Assembly: GCA_038882955.1 (NCBI GenBank)
Contig: JAVZNC010000002.1
Coordinates: forward strand, 32,001-96,000
Direction: 5' to 3'
Length of the DNA stretch: 64,000 nt
DNA from: Candidatus Bathyarchaeia archaeon
GTDB lineage: Archaea > Thermoproteota > Bathyarchaeia > Bathyarchaeales > Bathycorpusculaceae
Part shown: positions 4,827-44,655 of the stretch, piece after piece
Position numbering within the stretch: the stretch's first letter is position 1
How the letters are laid out: every line of letters starts with the position of its first letter
Translations under genes and position numbers: made by a program
The notes under the pieces: generated by a model
What the model saw: the letters and a program-made list of their open reading frames with translations, nothing else
What the model was told of the DNA's origin: nothing
Databases searched by the model: none

Positions 4827-5939
4827 ATGGGAAAATGCAAAGTTTGCGGCGAAGAATCGCCTATAATCTCTGATGGTGTTGGCGTCTGCCTAAAATGTAT
4901 TAGGGAAAAGCCTCAACAAGCCTTGGAAATTACTAAGCGCGTTCACGCTGAAAGCCGCGGTGGTTTTGGTTTGCCGGCTGAACCACCGCGTGATTCTGGT
5001 GGACTTGCGTGTGGTGTCTGCGCCAACAACTGTGTTATTGGTGTTGGCAAGTGTGGTTTTTGTGGGCTTGTTTGGAATGTTGGTGGGCGTTTGGTACGTT
5101 TTGGCGGCACGGCGGAAAAGGGCGTTTTAGAATGGTATTATGATGGTTTGCCAACCAACTGCGTTAGCTGGTGGTTTTGTCCCGGCTGCACTGGCGCTGG
5201 TTATCCGCGTTTTGCTTATGCGCCAGAAGCCGAGTACGGCTACGCGAATTTGGCTGTTTTTTACGGCGCTTGCAGCTACGACTGCCTATACTGTCAGAAC
5301 TGGCATTATCGTAGGCTTTCTGTTAAGCATAAGCCCGTCTTGAGCGCTGCCGATTTAGCCTCAAAAGTGGATAAGCATGTTTCGTGCATATGCTATTTTG
5401 GCGGTGACCCTTCGCCGCAGATGCCCCATTCGCTTGAAACGAGCCGTTTGGCTTTGGAGAAGGCGAAAGCTGAAAAGCGTATTTTGCGTGTTTGCTGGGA
5501 AACCAATGGCTACATGAACACGCAGTTGGCTGAAAGGGCAGCGGAGTACGCGCTTGAAAGCGGCGGCAACATAAAATTCGACTTAAAAGCGTACAGCGAA
5601 GAACTATCAATTGCGCTATGCGGCGTGTCCAACAAGCCTTCGCTTGAGAACTTTCGTCTAATAGGAGAAAAATACTACAGCAAGCGCGAAGAACTGCCAG
5701 TGCTAACGGCGAGCACTTTGCTTGTGCCAGGCTACGTGGACGCTGAGGAAGTGGAGAAAATAGCGCAGTTCATAAGCCAAGTAAACCCGAATATTCCGTA
5801 CACGCTTTTGGCTTTTTATCCATGCTACTTGATGAATGATTTGCCAACAACCAGCAAAAAACAAGCCCTAGAATGCCAAAAAACAGCACAAAAACACCTA
5901 AAAAACACACAAATAGGAAACATACACCTGCTAACATGA
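4827..5939 (+). CDS. Radical SAM protein (PflA-like / AmmeMemoRadiSam-like)
   Basis: CSYDCLYCQN (CxxxCxxC), FGGDP, ETNG, DLKA; extra N-terminal Cys clusters. Confidence 0.85.
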   Translation: MGKCKVCGEESPIISDGVGVCLKCIREKPQQALEITKRVHAESRGGFGLPAEPPRDSGGLACGVCANNCVIGVGKCGFCGLVWNVGGRLVRFGGTAEKGVLEWYYDGLPTNCVSWWFCPGCTGAGYPRFAYAPEAEYGYANLAVFYGACSYDCLYCQNWHYRRLSVKHKPVLSAADLASKVDKHVSCICYFGGDPSPQMPHSLETSRLALEKAKAEKRILRVCWETNGYMNTQLAERAAEYALESGGNIKFDLKAYSEELSIALCGVSNKPSLENFRLIGEKYYSKREELPVLTASTLLVPGYVDAEEVEKIAQFISQVNPNIPYTLLAFYPCYLMNDLPTTSKKQALECQKTAQKHLKNTQIGNIHLLT

Positions 5940-6017
5940 ATGCAATTGAATAATATTTATTGATACAGAATACTTTTTTACTTCCTATTGAGTTTAATGG
6001 GTAGGAGGTAAAATAGC

Positions 6018-6245
6018 TTGAAAGAGATTCGTATTCGGTGGATTAAAAGAAATGACCCTAAACGTTTACCGTATGGTTGCGTTTGGGTCGTCAAGGTTCC
6101 TGAAAATATGTGGCCGGAAGTTTCCAAATGGTATAAAAGATACATAAGTCGTTCCGGAGTCTCGGAAAAACATCATCGCATATGGGTTCGGACACTTGGT
6201 CATCTAATGGATTTGATACGAAAAATAACCGAAATCTCTGAATAA
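6018..6245 (+). CDS. Small basic hypothetical protein
   Basis: 75-aa ORF with AGGAGGT SD just upstream of the TTG start. Confidence 0.55.
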   Translation: MKEIRIRWIKRNDPKRLPYGCVWVVKVPENMWPEVSKWYKRYISRSGVSEKHHRIWVRTLGHLMDLIRKITEISE

Positions 6246-6325
6246 TTTTTACCTGATTGAATGTAGTTATTGGATAGAAAAAAGTTTAAATATTTAGTAA
6301 TACTTGGTTTATTTGGTTGGTGTAT

Positions 6326-7000
6326 ATGGGAAAAATTGGAAAATACGATTATCCGGATGTATCCTTAAGCGAGTCAATAAAAGATGCCAAAAAAATTTAT
6401 GACCGATTTAAAGACGAGGCTGTGGATGCCACTCTTATATCCGAAACAATCGGTTATAAAGGAGGTACTTTTTTTCAAAGGCTATCTTCTTTAAGAAAAT
6501 ATGGGTTGGTAACAAGTAAAGGTAAAGTAGGAATAACCGAGTTGGGCAAAAGGATAACATATCCTGCCAACAAGGATGAGGAGTTGGAGGCTATAAAAGA
6601 GGCTATAGGAAATGTAGAATTGTTTAGAGCCCTTTATGAGAAATTTGATTTGCAATTACCAAAAGAAAAGTTTTGGGTAAATCTTGTAAGTATAACTGGT
6701 GCGGAAGCTCCGGATGCGCAGGCTAAAGCCGACGTTATCCGGAAAATTTTTGAAGAGTCAGTAGCTCCATTAGCAGTAAAGCCTGAAAAGGCAAGGGAAA
6801 TAACTCCTTCAAAAATCATAGGTCAGCCAGATTTTGCTGTATTTGAGACCGATGATTTTGTTATCCGAGTTCGCAAGGACTTAAATTCAATAAGGTTCGT
6901 CAAGGAGCAACTAATGGAAACTATTAAACATTGGTTAGATCACGTTGAATATAAAGTAAAAGTTGAATCTAAGGAAAGCTCTGGTGAAAAAAATGCCTAA
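6326..7000 (+). CDS. Hypothetical winged-helix-like protein
   Basis: YPDVSLSESIKDAKKIY...RLSSLRKYGLV...GITELGKRI pattern typical of wHTH wings; stop overlaps the NYN start. Confidence 0.6.
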   Translation: MGKIGKYDYPDVSLSESIKDAKKIYDRFKDEAVDATLISETIGYKGGTFFQRLSSLRKYGLVTSKGKVGITELGKRITYPANKDEELEAIKEAIGNVELFRALYEKFDLQLPKEKFWVNLVSITGAEAPDAQAKADVIRKIFEESVAPLAVKPEKAREITPSKIIGQPDFAVFETDDFVIRVRKDLNSIRFVKEQLMETIKHWLDHVEYKVKVESKESSGEKNA

Positions 7001-37574: not shown

Positions 37575-39878
37575 ATGAATCCAATGGGCATTCGCGAAGC
37601 CTTATCAAAAGAAAGCATCGCTAACGGAATAAAAAGTTTGGGAAAACTGCGCGTCAGAATGAGCCACAGCTCAATAATGACCATCTCAGCCTTGCTGCTC
37701 ATACTATTTGTGGCATTCACCATTCGCATCTTGCCGCTACGCTGGGAAATAGCGCCAGAAAAAAACACATTGCTGCTTTCAGAGTTCGATCCCTACTACC
37801 AATATAGCCTTACAAAATACATGGTGGAAAACGGCTTCTTCGCGCCATACATTCCTCCAGGATGGGTTGACCACCAACGTTGGTACCCAGACGGAATAAA
37901 CATGTCGCAGTCCTACCCTTCTCTAGCAATGACGGCGGCATTCCTTTACAATATGATCTCCATGTTAGGAATAAACATTGACTTGATGAGTTTCTGCGCT
38001 CTTTTCCCTGTAATAATGGGTACACTAGCATGCCTAATAATCTACTTCGTCGGCAAAGACATTGGCGGAACCACCATCGGATTGCTTTCAGCATTGTTTT
38101 TGGCGCTAAGCCCATCTTACATTCAGAGAACATCACTAGGCTTTTTCGACGACGAAACAATAGGCATAGTCGCACTACTCTTGTTTATGTATATGTTCTT
38201 AAAATCCCTTGAAGAGGATAGACCGCTCAACTCTACGATGAAGTACGCCATTGGCTCTGGACTGGCTTTAGGTTATTTCATTTCTGGATGGGGTGCAGCT
38301 TTTTATCCCATCGGGTTAACGGCGCTATTCGTTCTCGTTTTAATCTTGATTAAAAGGTACTCGCAGAGGCTACTATTATCTTACACGGTGACGTTTGGGC
38401 TAGGCTTACTCATAGCAATAAACGTTCCCTATCTTTCACCGAGCTATTTGACGGCGACAGCTATAATTCCAGTCGCTGGAGTATTCGTATTGCTATGTGC
38501 CGCTGAAATTCTGCGCAACATAACATCAACTGGAATGCGTATAACATTTGCTATACTCTTCATTTGCGCTTTAATAGGTGGATTCGCCTTTCTGTGGCAA
38601 TGTGGATATTTAGGAGGTATTGCTGGCAAATTCCTTTCCGTAATCGACCCATTTGCAAGGGCAGAATCTCCGCTTGTGGAATCTGTTGCTGAACACAGAA
38701 TTTCCGCTTGGGGCTCAATATACTACGAGTTTGGAATAGGCATAATATTTTTCATAGCAGGACTATATTTCCTTGTTAGGAACCCAACAAACAAAAACTT
38801 GTTCATAATACTTTTCGGCATAACGTCACTCTATTTTGCCTGTTCAATGGTACGTCTGCTCGTGCTCATGGCTCCAGCCTTCAGCCTAGTGGCAACAAGC
38901 GGCGTATTAGGCGTGCTAAAACCCTTTTACACGCTGTTAAAGGAACCGCCAAAGATAATTACAAAGAGGAAGTATGGTTTAGAGCATGTTGGAAAAGAGT
39001 TCAGCGGAACAGCAATATTCCTAATATTCCTAATACTAATGACAAACTTCGCCTTCTCGCCGCAATCAGGCGGCATGCCAAAAGTTTACAAGCAAGCATA
39101 CACGCCAACAACAATTTCTGCTGGGAGCCTTCCAATAGCGCCCAACGAACCAGTTAAGGAATGGTTGGACATGTTAAGCTGGCTAAGAAGTAATTTAGGA
39201 CCCAAACCAATAGGTGAAAAAGTTGTTTGCAGCTGGTGGGACTATGGCTATTGGCTTTCAATACTTGGCAATGTGACATCGCTCGCGGACAACGCAACAA
39301 TAAACACTACGCAGATAGAGAACATAGGCTTCATATTTATGGCCAACGAAACAGACGCATTGAAAATGCTGAAACTCTACGATGCAAGATACATCCTCGT
39401 TTTTGTGACTATAAGCACTGACGGTGGACTTGCAAATGCTGGCGGGGATGAAGGGAAATGGGTTTGGATGGCGCAAATTTCCGGTGTATCCAGAAGGCGT
39501 TTTATAGATGGCGGCTTTATAGATGAAAATTTGATGTGGACTTCGAGTTTTGAGCAAGTTCGAGCAATGTTTGGCAATTATACTTTAGGGTATGATTGGA
39601 CAGACACAAATGGCAATAACAAAGTGGATGAGGGCGAGCTAATTAATATTAGTGAAGGACAAAATTCGACGATATATAAGTTAATGCATTATGCGCGGGA
39701 AAGATGGCTACAAGAACAGAAAGGCTACTCTCCGACTATTCAGCCGACATACTTTAAGGAAGCTTACATTGCTGGACTGAAAAACGATGGGAGCAAATAT
39801 GGTTATAGCATTATTCCGCTTGTTGCTTTGTATGAAATTGATTGGGAAAAATATTACACGGACTTTCCAAACACATAA
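37575..39878 (+). CDS. aglB: Oligosaccharyltransferase AglB/STT3
   Basis: EFDPYY, GFFDDE, SVAEH, WWDYG, ADN, DEGK motifs; many TM helices. Confidence 0.95.
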   Translation: MNPMGIREALSKESIANGIKSLGKLRVRMSHSSIMTISALLLILFVAFTIRILPLRWEIAPEKNTLLLSEFDPYYQYSLTKYMVENGFFAPYIPPGWVDHQRWYPDGINMSQSYPSLAMTAAFLYNMISMLGINIDLMSFCALFPVIMGTLACLIIYFVGKDIGGTTIGLLSALFLALSPSYIQRTSLGFFDDETIGIVALLLFMYMFLKSLEEDRPLNSTMKYAIGSGLALGYFISGWGAAFYPIGLTALFVLVLILIKRYSQRLLLSYTVTFGLGLLIAINVPYLSPSYLTATAIIPVAGVFVLLCAAEILRNITSTGMRITFAILFICALIGGFAFLWQCGYLGGIAGKFLSVIDPFARAESPLVESVAEHRISAWGSIYYEFGIGIIFFIAGLYFLVRNPTNKNLFIILFGITSLYFACSMVRLLVLMAPAFSLVATSGVLGVLKPFYTLLKEPPKIITKRKYGLEHVGKEFSGTAIFLIFLILMTNFAFSPQSGGMPKVYKQAYTPTTISAGSLPIAPNEPVKEWLDMLSWLRSNLGPKPIGEKVVCSWWDYGYWLSILGNVTSLADNATINTTQIENIGFIFMANETDALKMLKLYDARYILVFVTISTDGGLANAGGDEGKWVWMAQISGVSRRRFIDGGFIDENLMWTSSFEQVRAMFGNYTLGYDWTDTNGNNKVDEGELINISEGQNSTIYKLMHYARERWLQEQKGYSPTIQPTYFKEAYIAGLKNDGSKYGYSIIPLVALYEIDWEKYYTDFPNT

Positions 39879-39892
39879 GGAAGCGGTGACTG

Positions 39893-40753
39893 TTGTTTCC
39901 GAAAGTTCCGGACCAGCACAAGCCAAACAAGCCGTTGGTTCCAAACGGCTTAGGCGCAATTTACGTTATAGCTAGTGCCGTATACCTTTTCACTCTTGAA
40001 TATTTTCGTTCTCCAAGCGATAATGTTTCTAAGGCTTTAACTTTGGCTGTCTGCATACTGTTCGGCGGGTTTATGGGTTTGCTCGATGATTGGATGGATT
40101 TGCGTTGGCGCTATAAGGCTTTCTTTCCGTTAATTGCTGCTATACCGCTTGCTTCTTTGGCTATGAGGCTCGGAGTGAGAACTTCAATGACAATTCCTTT
40201 GATAGGAGTTGTTTTAGATTTTGGTTCTGCTTATTTTTTGGTGGTCATTCCGTTAATTGTTACTATAACCACAAACACCGTGAATCAGCTCGGTGGGCTA
40301 AATGGTCTGGAAACGGTTTGTCCAGCCATAGTATTGGTTGGGTTGATGGTTATGTCTGGCGATAATGCTGTTCTCTTGTATGTTCCATTGGCTGTTTGGT
40401 TGATTTTGGCTTTTTTAAATTTTCGAGGCAGAATTTTTGTTGGAAATACTGGGTCTTTCGCCATCGGGATAACTTTGTCGGCTTTTGCAATAATTTCCGA
40501 TTTAAAAATGAGTCTGGTGGTTTGCATCTTACCATATATTTTTAATTCAGCGTTAATCTTGTTGTCATATTTTCTTTTTAGGGTTAAGGCGCATGTTTCT
40601 TTTGATGGAGAAAGACTCGTTTCAGACCATAGAAGAAGCTTGGTTACGCTGATTACTTATAATCGTCCGTTGAGAGAACGCCAAGTGGTGGTTATAGTTT
40701 CGCTTATAGTGGCGCTTTTCACCCTATTTGCTGTTCTTCTCGAGTTTTTATGA
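39893..40753 (+). CDS. Polyprenyl-P GlcNAc-1-P transferase (AglH/Alg7/MraY family)
   Basis: GLLDD, NTVNQLGGLNGLE, IFVGNTGS. Confidence 0.85.
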   Translation: MFPKVPDQHKPNKPLVPNGLGAIYVIASAVYLFTLEYFRSPSDNVSKALTLAVCILFGGFMGLLDDWMDLRWRYKAFFPLIAAIPLASLAMRLGVRTSMTIPLIGVVLDFGSAYFLVVIPLIVTITTNTVNQLGGLNGLETVCPAIVLVGLMVMSGDNAVLLYVPLAVWLILAFLNFRGRIFVGNTGSFAIGITLSAFAIISDLKMSLVVCILPYIFNSALILLSYFLFRVKAHVSFDGERLVSDHRRSLVTLITYNRPLRERQVVVIVSLIVALFTLFAVLLEFL

Positions 40754-40942: not shown

Positions 40943-41380
40943 TTGTTAGGTGTAAGGCTTGACGTTAAGACTGGTGGGGCTGAAACTATAAATTTTGATG
41001 TTAAGGCAAGGCTTGAGGAGAGAGAGCGTAAAAGCCAGCTTGTCGTTGTTAACTTCAGCCTCGTCCTCTCTACAAAGCCAAGTGTGGTTAAGTTTGAAAT
41101 TGAAGGTGCAGCAACATTAACTGGCAAGGATTCCGAAATAAGCAAGATGTTAGAAGTGGACCCAGAAACAAAAGTGCCATACGTCTTCCACAGGGTTTAC
41201 CAACATGCATTCACAGCCATGTACTTACTGTCGACAATTCTAAACACGCCGCCTCCACCACAAGACTTGCTATTCTCAAATAGGGAGCAAGGACTGCCAA
41301 TCGAAGACGTTAACGTGGAAGTAGCCGAAGCAGCCGCAGACCTTGTTAAGGTTCAAACTGAAACAGAGAGCAAAACTTAA
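40943..41380 (+). CDS. Hypothetical SecB-like fold protein (true start probably upstream)
   Basis: Beta-rich region, helix and PPP tail; frame is open back to 40874 with no earlier canonical start. Confidence 0.55.
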   Translation: MLGVRLDVKTGGAETINFDVKARLEERERKSQLVVVNFSLVLSTKPSVVKFEIEGAATLTGKDSEISKMLEVDPETKVPYVFHRVYQHAFTAMYLLSTILNTPPPPQDLLFSNREQGLPIEDVNVEVAEAAADLVKVQTETESKT

Positions 41381-41408
41381 TAGCGTTAGAGAATTTTCCA
41401 TATGCAAA

Positions 41409-41469
41409 TGGCGGGTGAGTGGACCTCCACCCGTTCCGCCACATAAACCCCGGTGTAGGAGGTGGAAAA
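41409..41469 (+). promoter_or_regulatory. Structured 5' leader of queT with anti-SD; candidate riboswitch
   Basis: UGGCGG/CCGCCA stem; loop ACCUCC complementary to SD GGAGGU. Confidence 0.5.
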
Positions 41470-41958
41470 GTGAAATTTGGTAGTAAAGAGGCGGTGTTGA
41501 CTGCGGTTTTCGCTGGGCTTTATGCTGCTTGTGTGGTTCTCCTTGCGCCTATAAGCTTTGGAGTTTACCAAGTTAGAGTTGCTGATGCTCTGCTGCCGTT
41601 GTCCATCATATTTGGGTTGCCGAGTGCCATAGGCTTAAGCCTTGGATGTTTAGTCGCGAATTTCTATGGCAGTTTAGGAATAATCGACATTGTTGGTGGA
41701 ACAATTGCAAACTTTGTAGCGTGTACGTTGGCTTGGTACGTTGGCAAAGGCGGATTTGTGCGAAGGTTATTTGGAAGTTTTGTTGAAACGCTGGCTATAA
41801 CGGTGATTGTTGGAGGCTACTTGTCGCTAATATTCAATGTTCCAGTTGAAATTGGCTTGCTCGGCATATTCATAGGCTCTGTCGTAGCGATAAATGTTCT
41901 TGGCTTTGCGTTGGAAGAGGGCTTATATCGAAGCGGCATATGGAAAGGTGTCAAGTAA
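41470..41958 (+). CDS. queT: QueT-family (COG4708) transporter / ECF S component
   Basis: LAPISFGVYQVRVADAL..L...GLSLGCLVANF...GIIDIVGG; SD AGGAGGTGG before GTG 41470. Confidence 0.85.
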   Translation: MKFGSKEAVLTAVFAGLYAACVVLLAPISFGVYQVRVADALLPLSIIFGLPSAIGLSLGCLVANFYGSLGIIDIVGGTIANFVACTLAWYVGKGGFVRRLFGSFVETLAITVIVGGYLSLIFNVPVEIGLLGIFIGSVVAINVLGFALEEGLYRSGIWKGVK

Positions 41959-41973
41959 CATACGACAAAATCT

Positions 41974-44655
41974 TTACATGAAGCGTTCCAGTTTTGTCAG
42001 CCCTATTATTTCATCAAAGTCTAGACCCAATGCGTCCAGAACTTGGTCAAACGTTGAGTGGAGATACGCGATGTACTTGTCAACGTCTATTTCGTTGTTT
42101 GTCGCTAGCTCTACCGGTTTGACGTGTGGTTCTTTAACTACTTTGACGAAGCTTATGAGGTCTCCAGCTTTAAGCTCTAATCCTCCCTCTTTTAGGATTC
42201 TTGCCGCTTTGACGTGTTGTGGCGTTGTTTTTGTGTAGCGTTCTGGTTCTTCACCTAGCACTACATTGAAGGCTAGTTCTTCTAGGCTTGTCCATTCTCG
42301 TCTTTTTAGGCGCATGTAGCAGTCGCGGATTATTTCACATGTGTCTTTTTTGGCTTTTTCAAAGTCTGCTGGCGTTTTCACTGTGGCTAGGCGTTCCTTC
42401 ATTCTGTCAAAAGCCTTCTTGATGAACAGTGGTATGTGCCTTTTCTTGCCCGTTAATCCCTTAACGTCGACGCTTCCGTCCTCTAAAACTCCGAGATAAT
42501 TCTTTTTGCGTGAGCTGAAAACGATGTATCTGTAGATTTTGTCCACGTCCAAGCTCATTTTTAATTCGCTTTCAGCCCACTTGGACAGTTCTTCGATCTG
42601 CTCTTTTGACGGGTTTTTTAAGAATATGCTGTCCGTGTCGCCGTAAAGCACCTGGATGTTAAGTTCCTTGGCTTTGTTGATTATCTGTGTTATTGAGTGT
42701 CGCCCTATGGCTGCTGTTGCTTCAGCGACTGGTGGACAATAGAGGTCAAAGGTTTCGGCTCCGAAGACGCCGTAGCTTGCATTCAAAATAACCTTTAAGG
42801 CGCCTTGGATGGGATTGTACCAGCCTTTAAGCTCCTTTGAGAGGCTTTTGTCTTTTGACCTTGGTTTGTACCAGCGCACGCGCAGGTCCCTAAGTGAGCC
42901 TATTAGGAGGCTTTCTAATGCCCGTTTTTTGGTGCAAACCCAGTGTGGCGTGTCTGGGATTAGGTTGCTGCGACATTCTGGATGTTGGCATAAGATTGAT
43001 TGGTAGCCCAGGTTCCAAACTTTTATTATTGATGGGTATAGGCTTTGGAAGTCCAAGTCTGCCACGTTGAAGTGGACGCCTGGCACTGGTTCAACGACTA
43101 TTGCACCTTTGTATTTTTTGCCTTTGATTATGGCTTTTGTGGCGGTTTTGCCTTTCACGGCTAGGATTTCCTCTGCGTTTGGGATGAGCATGTTTCTTCT
43201 GCGGTGCTCTCTGTGTAGGAAATTCCTTATCCAACGTGAAACTCCTTGGCGGCTCACGTCTTCCATTGGCATGCTGCTTATCCTAGCCAAAACCAGGATG
43301 AGTTTCATTACTAGCTCGTCTTCGAAGCTTGTAAGTTTGAAGGTTATTTCCGCGTCTCTAAAGCAGTATTTTGCAAGTTCCGTGTAAGTTAATTCGCCTA
43401 AGTTCTTTTCTAGGCGTATTTTTTCCATGCCAATTAGGGCTTTGCCAACATCGTCGAGGGTTACGTCCCTATAACGGTTGTTGAAGGCGTAAATTTGGAT
43501 TGAACGATTGAAGAAGAACTTGTAAAGGTCTATGTGAACGCCATATTTTAGAAGGCAGACGCGCTTGCCAACATCTATTGGAATTTCGTCCCTTCTGAAA
43601 CCGAATTTTTCTGCTCTGTGCACCAAATAACGTAGGTCAAAATCATCCCCGTTAAAAGTTATGACGAAGGGATAATCCCACAAAACTTCAAAAATAGCTT
43701 TTATAAGCTTCTCTTCCGAGTCAAAATATTCTAGGTTTACGTCAGCGGGCAAATGTTCGGTTCCTTCTCGGACTCCCTCACGCTCCAAAAGCAACACTTT
43801 CATTAGCCCATCAGAACCGTAAAGTGAAGCGCACACGATTGGGTATTCTGCCTCGCGGGCATCTGGCATACGTGTTGGAATTGGTGAGTAAACTTCTATG
43901 TCCAACGCTACGCGGCGAAACTTGGGAGCGGGATACTCTAGAAGCCTCGCCCACTGTTCAATGTACTGTAACTCCTCTTCTGTTGCGCCTTCAAAGAGGC
44001 TCATTATCTGCTTTACAGTTTTTTCTGATTCATTCAAACTTTTCATGACAAGTTTGCCGTTTCTAATTTCGTAGAGCATTCCAGGCCACAAGTCATTGTC
44101 GTAAATGTATGACTGGTAATACTTTATTTTTGATTCCCAAACCTTGATTTGTTCTTGGGCTATTGGCGTGTCGGCCACTTTTGGGAAGTCTTCTGGGATT
44201 ATGTCTCTAATGCAGCCTTTTGGTCGTCCTCCAATCGCTAGGGGGTCTTTAGCCACAATCTTTGTTACTTTCACAGTCTTATTCAATAACGGGTCAAATT
44301 TTTCCACGATTTCAAAATGGTCGAAGCCTTGATGTTGCCTTAGGTGGTCTATTTTTTCGAGTTCTAATGGTGAAAGGTTTGTGAGGCAATAAGGCTTATG
44401 CCCGCTATTGTCGTACCAAAAGTAGATTTTGCCCGAGACTGGCTCGTAAAGTTTGATTAGGACTTTTCCAGCTTTTCCATCATACGTGGCTGAAACAAAG
44501 TATGATGATGGCAGGTTTTCTGGCGCCAACGGCGGGAATGTTCGTTTTTCTTTTTCCTTTTTTATGGTTTCTGTGAAGGGTAGGGCTTCTGCTTCTTTTT
44601 CTTTTAATGTTTCGGTTTTTGGTTTGTAGAAGTCTTCTAGACGTTTCTGCGCCAT
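41974..44655 (-). CDS. polB: Family B DNA polymerase (PolB1 type)
   Basis: DIEV, FNGDDFD exonuclease motifs; DFQSLYPSII, KVILNASYG, YGDTDS; no intein. Confidence 0.96.
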   Translation of the reverse strand: MAQKRLEDFYKPKTETLKEKEAEALPFTETIKKEKEKRTFPPLAPENLPSSYFVSATYDGKAGKVLIKLYEPVSGKIYFWYDNSGHKPYCLTNLSPLELEKIDHLRQHQGFDHFEIVEKFDPLLNKTVKVTKIVAKDPLAIGGRPKGCIRDIIPEDFPKVADTPIAQEQIKVWESKIKYYQSYIYDNDLWPGMLYEIRNGKLVMKSLNESEKTVKQIMSLFEGATEEELQYIEQWARLLEYPAPKFRRVALDIEVYSPIPTRMPDAREAEYPIVCASLYGSDGLMKVLLLEREGVREGTEHLPADVNLEYFDSEEKLIKAIFEVLWDYPFVITFNGDDFDLRYLVHRAEKFGFRRDEIPIDVGKRVCLLKYGVHIDLYKFFFNRSIQIYAFNNRYRDVTLDDVGKALIGMEKIRLEKNLGELTYTELAKYCFRDAEITFKLTSFEDELVMKLILVLARISSMPMEDVSRQGVSRWIRNFLHREHRRRNMLIPNAEEILAVKGKTATKAIIKGKKYKGAIVVEPVPGVHFNVADLDFQSLYPSIIKVWNLGYQSILCQHPECRSNLIPDTPHWVCTKKRALESLLIGSLRDLRVRWYKPRSKDKSLSKELKGWYNPIQGALKVILNASYGVFGAETFDLYCPPVAEATAAIGRHSITQIINKAKELNIQVLYGDTDSIFLKNPSKEQIEELSKWAESELKMSLDVDKIYRYIVFSSRKKNYLGVLEDGSVDVKGLTGKKRHIPLFIKKAFDRMKERLATVKTPADFEKAKKDTCEIIRDCYMRLKRREWTSLEELAFNVVLGEEPERYTKTTPQHVKAARILKEGGLELKAGDLISFVKVVKEPHVKPVELATNNEIDVDKYIAYLHSTFDQVLDALGLDFDEIIGLTKLERFM

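Follow-up and report, generated by a model that had tools for sequence, protein, structure and literature searches.

The queT locus and its leader

The window, i.e., the whole stretch of 64,000 nucleotides that was analysed, carries a queT gene on the forward strand. The product was assigned to QueT by Pfam search (PF06177, E 4.7e-26, 92.2 bits against a gathering cut-off of 33.7) and is predicted to be the S-component of an ECF transporter for queuosine/archaeosine precursors. The gene stands by itself. The upstream ORF, i.e., an unassigned 145-aa ORF at 40943-41380, lies before the leader element and terminates within a TATA-like box. Neighbouring genes (window 37575-40753 and 41974-44655) include a 767-aa membrane protein, which is oligosaccharyltransferase-like by eye with no search made, and a glycosyltransferase family 4 protein (PF00953). 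Beside queT, a convergent 893-aa ORF on the opposite strand resembles family-B DNA polymerase by eye. The leader and its gene were divided into the following features.

41370-41383, forward strand: promoter-like region, made up of the TATA-like box CTTAATAG (41376-41383) and an A-rich stretch before it; shares bases with the upstream ORF's stop codon
41409-41414, forward strand: 5' strand of helix P1, UGGCGG; covaries with 41436-41441
41415-41422, forward strand: joining strand L1, GUGAGUGG; G41415 and U41416 near-invariant
41423-41430, forward strand: 5' strand of helix P2 (pseudoknot), the anti-Shine-Dalgarno ACCUCCAC; partner at 41455-41463
41431-41435, forward strand: joining strand L2, CCGUU; almost no variation; candidate pocket strand
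41436-41441, forward strand: 3' strand of P1, CCGCCA; covaries with 41409-41414
41442-41454, forward strand: joining strand L3, CAUAAACCCCGGU; A-rich and of variable length, then conserved AAA-N-CCC(GG)
41455-41465, forward strand: 3' strand of P2, GU-A-GGAGGU; includes the Shine-Dalgarno (SD) sequence GGAGGUGG (41458-41465); covaries with 41423-41430
41470-41958, forward strand: queT coding sequence with GTG start, from the ORF list and PF06177

Several of these parts had been picked out from the letters alone in a first-pass annotation. The stem TGGCGG (41409-41414) / CCGCCA (41436-41441), the linker CATAAAC (41442-41448) and CTTAATA (41376-41382, 27 nt 5' of 41409) were all present where it had placed them, and the loop ACCTCC (41423-41428) is complementary to GGAGGT (41458-41463) as it had described. 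In single-sequence folding, the leader gave the stem with an inner GUGG/CCAC hairpin at an MFE of -23.5 kcal/mol (z -0.66). Because 52 of 200 shuffled sequences were equally stable, the lone sequence proves nothing. It is the comparative evidence, i.e., the presence of the element at 29 of 30 QueT loci and its covariance model score, that makes the leader more than chance.

Conservation and distribution

QueT was searched in 61 related genomes and the gene was present in 54, with 30 loci listed. The same element of approximately 57 nt was observed in 29 of these 30 loci. It stands directly 5' of the matched queT in 27 of the 30, and in L018 and L019 it precedes an upstream queT paralogue. One listed locus, L009, has queT without the element, and some other queT-bearing genomes also lack it. 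The RNA of the element is nearly unchanged, although QueT identity drops to 32-45%.

One genome per species was scanned with a pattern that combined the conserved blocks, which gave at least 120 stretches. Full context, i.e., an SD-like tail and moderate G+C, was found in 64 of the 120 stretches listed. The other 56, all bacterial, were judged chance matches with high G+C and no SD/queT context. Among the 80 record titles listed, the true matches were nearly all from Candidatus Bathyarchaeia or Bathyarchaeota; the titles listed also include single records of Methanomethylicota (L053) and Promethearchaeota (L038) and a few of Nitrososphaerota or only "archaeon". The loci L031-L150 were gathered by this pattern, which fixes GCGGGT, CCGTTCCGC and CCCGG. 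The invariance of those blocks within L031-L150 is therefore partly ascertainment. The QueT-based and model-based sets, which are free of the pattern bias, show the same blocks.

The spread of the element was measured with a covariance model (R1), for which only sampled genomes of two phyla were scanned. The window element scored 81.4 bits (E 3.7e-18). Within the window's class, which is Bathyarchaeia according to public record titles, the model found the element in 93 of the 151 genomes sampled and in 71 of the 94 of high quality. In a sample of the phylum, 28 of 151 genomes carry it. Outside the window's class but in the same phylum, 15 genomes of four families were positive (9/15, 3/3, 2/2 and one genome), and no element was detected in three other families of 19, 13 and 13 genomes. 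The class of the genome that holds L038, from a record titled Promethearchaeota, has the element in 7 of 7 genomes, and its phylum in 23 of 151. Among all records examined, the element was seen only in archaeal ones.

Only one other comparable match was found in the window's 1.54-Mb genome. It scored 77.7 bits and lies before a second queT (G000 contig C19:6475-6853, L152), which is 76% identical to the window's queT and is cut by the contig end. This second copy of element and gene may be paralogous, or it may stem from contaminating sequence, put at 6% for the assembly.

One weak match, L247 (G251:C1:9320-9384; 22 bits, E 0.0084), was rejected as probably chance, its next genes being secreted-looking and non-QueT. 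It has a GUCGG/CCGAC stem and a AAAACCCCG...GGAG tail.

Promoter-like sequence

When 98 upstream regions were aligned, the sole conserved feature was a T/A box together with an A-rich stretch, with the consensus aaAAAaTTTTTa. Measured from the G of GCGGG (41411 in the window), 72 of 129 TATA-like matches begin between -36 and -32. The usual spacing between promoter and transcript start in archaea was used to place the start of the transcript. In the absence of RNA data, the start is inferred approximately 3-6 nt 5' of P1, i.e., at about 41403-41408. A promoter-like box at a fixed distance puts P1 at the 5' end of the mRNA, again without RNA data. The first-pass annotation had held that a start downstream of the stem would refute it; the placement of the box means that the stem should be transcribed, and this also remains an inference.

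Helices and covariation

Both helices were observed by covariation. In P1, among 99 distinct sequences, pair 4/40 was GC in 65, AU in 19, GU in 6, UA in 5 and CG in 1, with 3 unpaired. Pair 3/41 was UA in 38, AU in 18, UG in 3, CG in 2, GU in 2 and GC in 1, with 34 unpaired. The four inner P1 pairs were invariant among the 99 distinct model-aligned sequences, but L245, L246 and L248 have C-G in place of the innermost G-C. Compensated variants of P2 were found as UUCACCUCC/GGAGGUGAA (L017), UUCCUCCC/GGGAGGAA (L018), UCCGAC/GUCGGA (L196), GCCCCCU/AGGGGGC (L202) and CUUCC/GGAAG (L244), and as CUCGCA/UGCGAG in subtype D of the second phylum.

Over both helices, 91.6% of cells were paired, against 34-60% when the partners were slid by 1-3 columns. 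The covariation score was 0.263 against 0.143 +/- 0.008, a value reached by none of 500 shuffles (99 sequences; the A1 alignment was similar). Without any alignment, the duplexes of each loop with its own tail averaged -12.88 kcal/mol against -11.28 +/- 0.19 for permuted partners, and 0 of 10000 permutations reached it. A second loop/tail permutation test gave -12.36 against -11.07 +/- 0.17 (0/5000). The sequences are phylogenetically related, so these shuffle figures overstate independence and are not probabilities. Conservation and covariation among queT leaders, without which the first-pass annotation would have been refuted, proved strong, and the stem and the loop-SD pseudoknot both covary. 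From sequence comparison, it is supported that P1 and P2 form a putative H-type pseudoknot.

A leader structure that is merely constitutive, or a DNA operator in which the inverted repeat GGCGG/CCGCC is read by a transcription factor, would need no RNA switching. The P1 repeat does lie just downstream of the promoter-like box, and the predicted fold is not unusually stable. However, both P1 and P2 tolerate G-U pairs, and these would count as mismatches in DNA or on the opposite strand. They are frequent and occur on this strand only, which shows that it is RNA that pairs and that this RNA is sense. In covariation, the loop is partnered by the SD region at a distance of 30 nt, an arrangement unlike a palindrome, and an operator would leave the conserved single-stranded blocks unexplained. 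An operator or a constitutive structure is thus considered very improbable, and a regulatory RNA pseudoknot is retained.

Other pairings in the leader were less well supported. The competing pairings of the first-pass annotation, i.e., CGGGTG (41412-41417) / CACCCG (41428-41433) and GTGG/CCAC, do exist in the sequence but have no covariation support. In the GUGG/CCAC helix, supposed for the apo state, 91.4% of cells were paired and the covariation score was 0.091, as in the shuffles (0.091); only pair 14/29 has double changes (4). This hairpin is kept as a possibility and not as a finding. A helix of CCG (41431-41433) with CGG (41451-41453) is compatible in subtypes A, B and D. Its only changes are from C-G to U-G, no double change was found, and L201-L205 have no such partner. 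The alternative to P1 in which the L3 CCC pairs with GGG (41413-41415) was rejected, because in L245, L246 and L248 a G there has become C while the CCC is kept and the P1 partner compensates. RNAalifold gives only P1 because it cannot model pseudoknots. It also reports a G-U between columns 9 and 35 in each of 100 sequences, and a wobble pair of G41415 with U41435 is possible.

Joining strands and subtypes

Outside the helices, three blocks are near-constant across four subtypes, i.e., G-U at 41415-41416, C-Y-G...U at 41431-41435 and AAA-N-CCC at 41445-41451. The AAA and CCC of L3 were invariant in 100 of 100 sequences (alignment A3). The base before the 3' strand of P1 was U in 100 of 100, and the base preceding it was U, C or A. 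It is inferred that these invariant joining strands, which meet at the helix junction, resemble the ligand pockets of small pseudoknot riboswitches.

Variation of L2 was limited. CUG, with a U-G wobble to CGG, occurs in L191, L193, L194, L195 and L198, and CCG(C/A/U)U in L201-L205, where the GG of CCCGG is also replaced by AAAA. In subtype D (L231-L243, second phylum), L2 is enlarged to CCGUGCU or CCGAGUU. Loop insertions are sporadic (L017, L079, L101 and L148).

In L196 (301-364) and L199 (1501-1562), P2 pairs GUCGGA or GUCGG, and not an SD-like GGAGG, with a loop that matches, so SD masking is not universal. The start codon of these two loci is 3-10 nt downstream of the paired sequence, and what their pseudoknot covers may be the start region in place of an SD.

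The start codons themselves also vary. The queT start position holds ACG in L003/L139 and L138 and CTG in L065, L097 and L106, with GTG, TTG or ATG in relatives. No canonical in-frame start was found between the preceding stop and the ACG in L003. It seems that translation of these queT genes starts at near-cognate codons that follow a strong SD.

Genes behind the element

The element is associated with genes of 7-deazaguanine metabolism. By phmmer, 82 of 89 downstream ORFs of the first two locus sets were QueT-like, and three further ORFs (L042, L095 and L102) were QueT-like by eye. Among divergent matches of the class, 18 of 20 precede QueT-like ORFs, and the remaining two are truncated where the contig ends or have no called ORF. 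All checked matches of other classes of the window's phylum (10/10) precede QueT-like ORFs, and in the second phylum, with the record titled Promethearchaeota, all 22 checked loci precede queT.

Synthesis genes were also found behind the element, as is expected of a 7-deazaguanine sensor. It lies before a QueE-like radical-SAM gene in L061 and before QueE-like and then QueC-like genes in L071. For these genes, QueE and QueC were the best models, yet the scores were below the NCBIfam cut-offs. In L121 it precedes queC (QueC, 212.5 bits), and in L019 the order is queT, queC (188 bits), queT. In L098 it precedes a 277-aa ORF (5727-6557, reverse strand), which is followed by QueC (205 bits). This ORF had no Pfam or NCBIfam match and is a candidate for a new player in 7-deazaguanine metabolism. 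In the same Bathyarchaeia record, a phosphoribosyltransferase-like gene also follows the 277-aa ORF, together with queC. The genome of L071 (G330) has three copies of the element, two of which (among L071, L219 and L220) stand before QueE-like genes. Its third copy, with 47.6 bits and an altered L3 reading AAAUCACGG, is before an ORF without assignment.

Bacterial preQ1 riboswitches control the same gene set, i.e., queT and queCDEF, according to the accessible portions of two papers (PMC11625349, PMC5372724). The archaeal element meets the generic description of a riboswitch, i.e., a conserved structured leader with covariation that precedes genes of one pathway (queT, queC, queE).

The pseudoknot might still be a real cis-regulator with an effector other than a 7-deazaguanine base, e.g., a protein, a tRNA lacking archaeosine, another purine or temperature. 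The identity of the ligand rests only on the controlled genes, and the position that reads the guanine-like face in preQ1 class I is U here. Near-invariant unpaired strands and small size are, however, typical of metabolite aptamers, and the genes are restricted to synthesis and uptake of preQ0. The element also spans two phyla, and no conserved neighbouring regulator gene was noticed in the loci that were read, which was not a systematic survey. Another effector is therefore regarded as unlikely, and a 7-deazaguanine base is preferred.

Physiology and proposed mechanism

Apart from the steps cited below, the archaeosine pathway is textbook knowledge. The window's genome is 95.6% complete and encodes the tRNA-guanine transglycosylase (TGT) of archaeosine formation (285 bits). 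No true QueC was found in it, only partial PP-loop matches of 24 bits; QueD was not found; and for QueE there was just a radical-SAM match of 33 bits. With TGT present and queC, queD and queE absent, the organism should depend on import of a 7-deazaguanine, and queT fits salvage in this genome. In archaea, preQ0 is the free end product of QueC and is inserted into tRNA by the transglycosylase before conversion to archaeosine, as given in the available part of PMC5372724.

The element is proposed to act as follows. P1 (UGGCGG/CCGCCA) and P2, in which the P1 loop ACCUCCAC pairs with the SD-containing GU-A-GGAGGU, would form an H-type pseudoknot. A ligand pocket may be built at the P1/P2 junction from the G-U at the start of L1, the CCGUU of L2 and the AAA-N-CCC of L3. 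When the free 7-deazaguanine base is plentiful, its binding would lock P2, the SD would be hidden from the ribosome, and no importer would be made. When the base is scarce, P2 would open and QueT would be translated. The ligand would most likely be preQ0, after which the archaeosine pathway has no further free intermediate. Shutting off an importer and synthesis genes by the same RNA would follow the logic of end-product feedback, and preQ0 is for this reason the best ligand candidate.

The ligand, the OFF direction and the pocket are inferred without binding or expression data. With this restriction, 41409-41465 probably comprises both aptamer and expression platform of an OFF riboswitch that acts on translation and responds to a 7-deazaguanine, most likely preQ0. 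The translational switch sensing a 7-deazaguanine, which the first-pass annotation had proposed, is in this way supported by conservation, covariation and the association with queC and queE, still with no binding data. The element is a real and widespread archaeal cis-regulatory pseudoknot, and most likely it represents a new class of 7-deazaguanine riboswitch by which queT translation is repressed.

Confirmation would have several meanings. It would show how uptake and synthesis of an archaeosine precursor are balanced in uncultured Bathyarchaeia and related archaea, and it would support QueT as the archaeal preQ0 importer. SD-sequestering translational control would be established in Thermoproteota and in the Asgard-labelled phylum, and if the mechanism is true, there would be direct evidence in these lineages that translation is regulated by SD masking through a ligand-locked pseudoknot. 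The element could also serve archaeal genetics as a compact (approximately 57 nt), G-C-rich and probably heat-tolerant ligand-controlled switch. The four sequence subtypes are a ready mutational map for biochemistry.

Comparison with known riboswitches

No Rfam match at the gathering score was found when the whole 64-kb window was searched. No Rfam 15 match at E<=10 was found in 41300-41560, nor at the element in 20 further loci. Three weak and unrelated matches in these searches lay away from the element. The earlier impression that the sequence lies outside the known classes was therefore borne out in 21 loci, the preQ1 models included. In open-access full texts and bioRxiv, neither this motif nor any archaeal riboswitch for preQ0/preQ1 was found described; supplements were excluded and an earlier mention is possible.

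One of the closest known systems is preQ1-I (RF00522; types I-III). As summarised in the accessible text of a 2024 review (PMC11625349), class I riboswitches are H-type pseudoknots controlling queCDEF and queT, and they bind preQ0 only 17- to 130-fold more weakly than preQ1. Both RNAs have an A-rich strand after P1 and SD bases in P2, stand upstream of queT and of genes for synthesis of queuosine precursors, and likely share the same ligand family. In class I, UC or AC precedes the 3' strand of P1 and the C reads the ligand (PMC11625349, in the part available). The archaeal element lacks this specificity C and has U instead, so the analogy to known preQ1 aptamers yields no pocket model. Its length is approximately 57 nt against approximately 34 nt, and its conserved blocks are G-U..., CCGUU and AAA-N-CCC. 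Its hosts are archaea, whereas the portions available of the review name bacterial phyla only and do not mention archaea (PMC11625349).

It could be argued from these likenesses that the element is a diverged and enlarged member of bacterial preQ1-I and not a new class. The order of strands is identical (P1, P2 loop strand, P1 3' strand, A-rich L3 and SD-bearing P2 3' strand), and the gene set, queT with queC/queE, is the same. This strand order is, however, common to any H-type pseudoknot, and even at E<=10 neither the window nor the 20 further loci matched an Rfam model. The class-defining (U/A)C is UU, CU or AU, its last base being U in every one of the 100 sequences, and the size and the conserved blocks of L1, L2 and L3 differ. 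Membership in preQ1-I is accordingly given little credence, and a separate class is favoured.

PreQ1-II (RF01054, the COG4708/queT motif), which controls queT at translation alone, is alike in having the SD buried in a pseudoknot helix of the aptamer. This trait is met in the window, where GGAGGU (41458-41463) and ACCUCC (41423-41428) covary. From what could be consulted of PMC11625349, class II is an HLout pseudoknot of four helices (P1-P4) with a three-way-junction pocket built on U-A-U triples, and it is known from Bacillota only. The archaeal element differs in having only two conserved helices, no conserved inserted hairpin and a G-C-rich P2, and in giving no model match.

PreQ1-III (RF02680) is likewise found upstream of queT, and its loop anti-SD pairs with the SD. 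It is approximately 100 nt long with five pairing regions, and its SD is far from the pocket (both points from the accessible part of PMC11625349). The archaeal element has approximately 57 nt and two helices, and no match to the class III model. With its SD within the aptamer pseudoknot, it resembles class II and class I type III, but it is a member of no preQ1 class.

Whether the element is a fourth, structurally unrelated class of 7-deazaguanine riboswitch, tuned to preQ0 and not to preQ1 and native to archaea, is judged somewhat better than an even chance. Such a class would extend over Bathyarchaeia, other Thermoproteota and the phylum with the Promethearchaeota-titled (Asgard) record, and if confirmed it would be a new fold of 7-deazaguanine aptamer.

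To our knowledge, natural archaeal riboswitches are very few. In the available part of a 2021 paper, the fluoride riboswitch is the only one experimentally determined in archaea (PMC8241225). The Thermococcus kodakarensis fluoride riboswitch is like the present element in being a natural archaeal riboswitch. It differs in its ligand and genes, and its family is common to bacteria. The queT element, if the proposal is true, would be the first riboswitch class that is both widespread and, as far as is known, exclusive to archaea.
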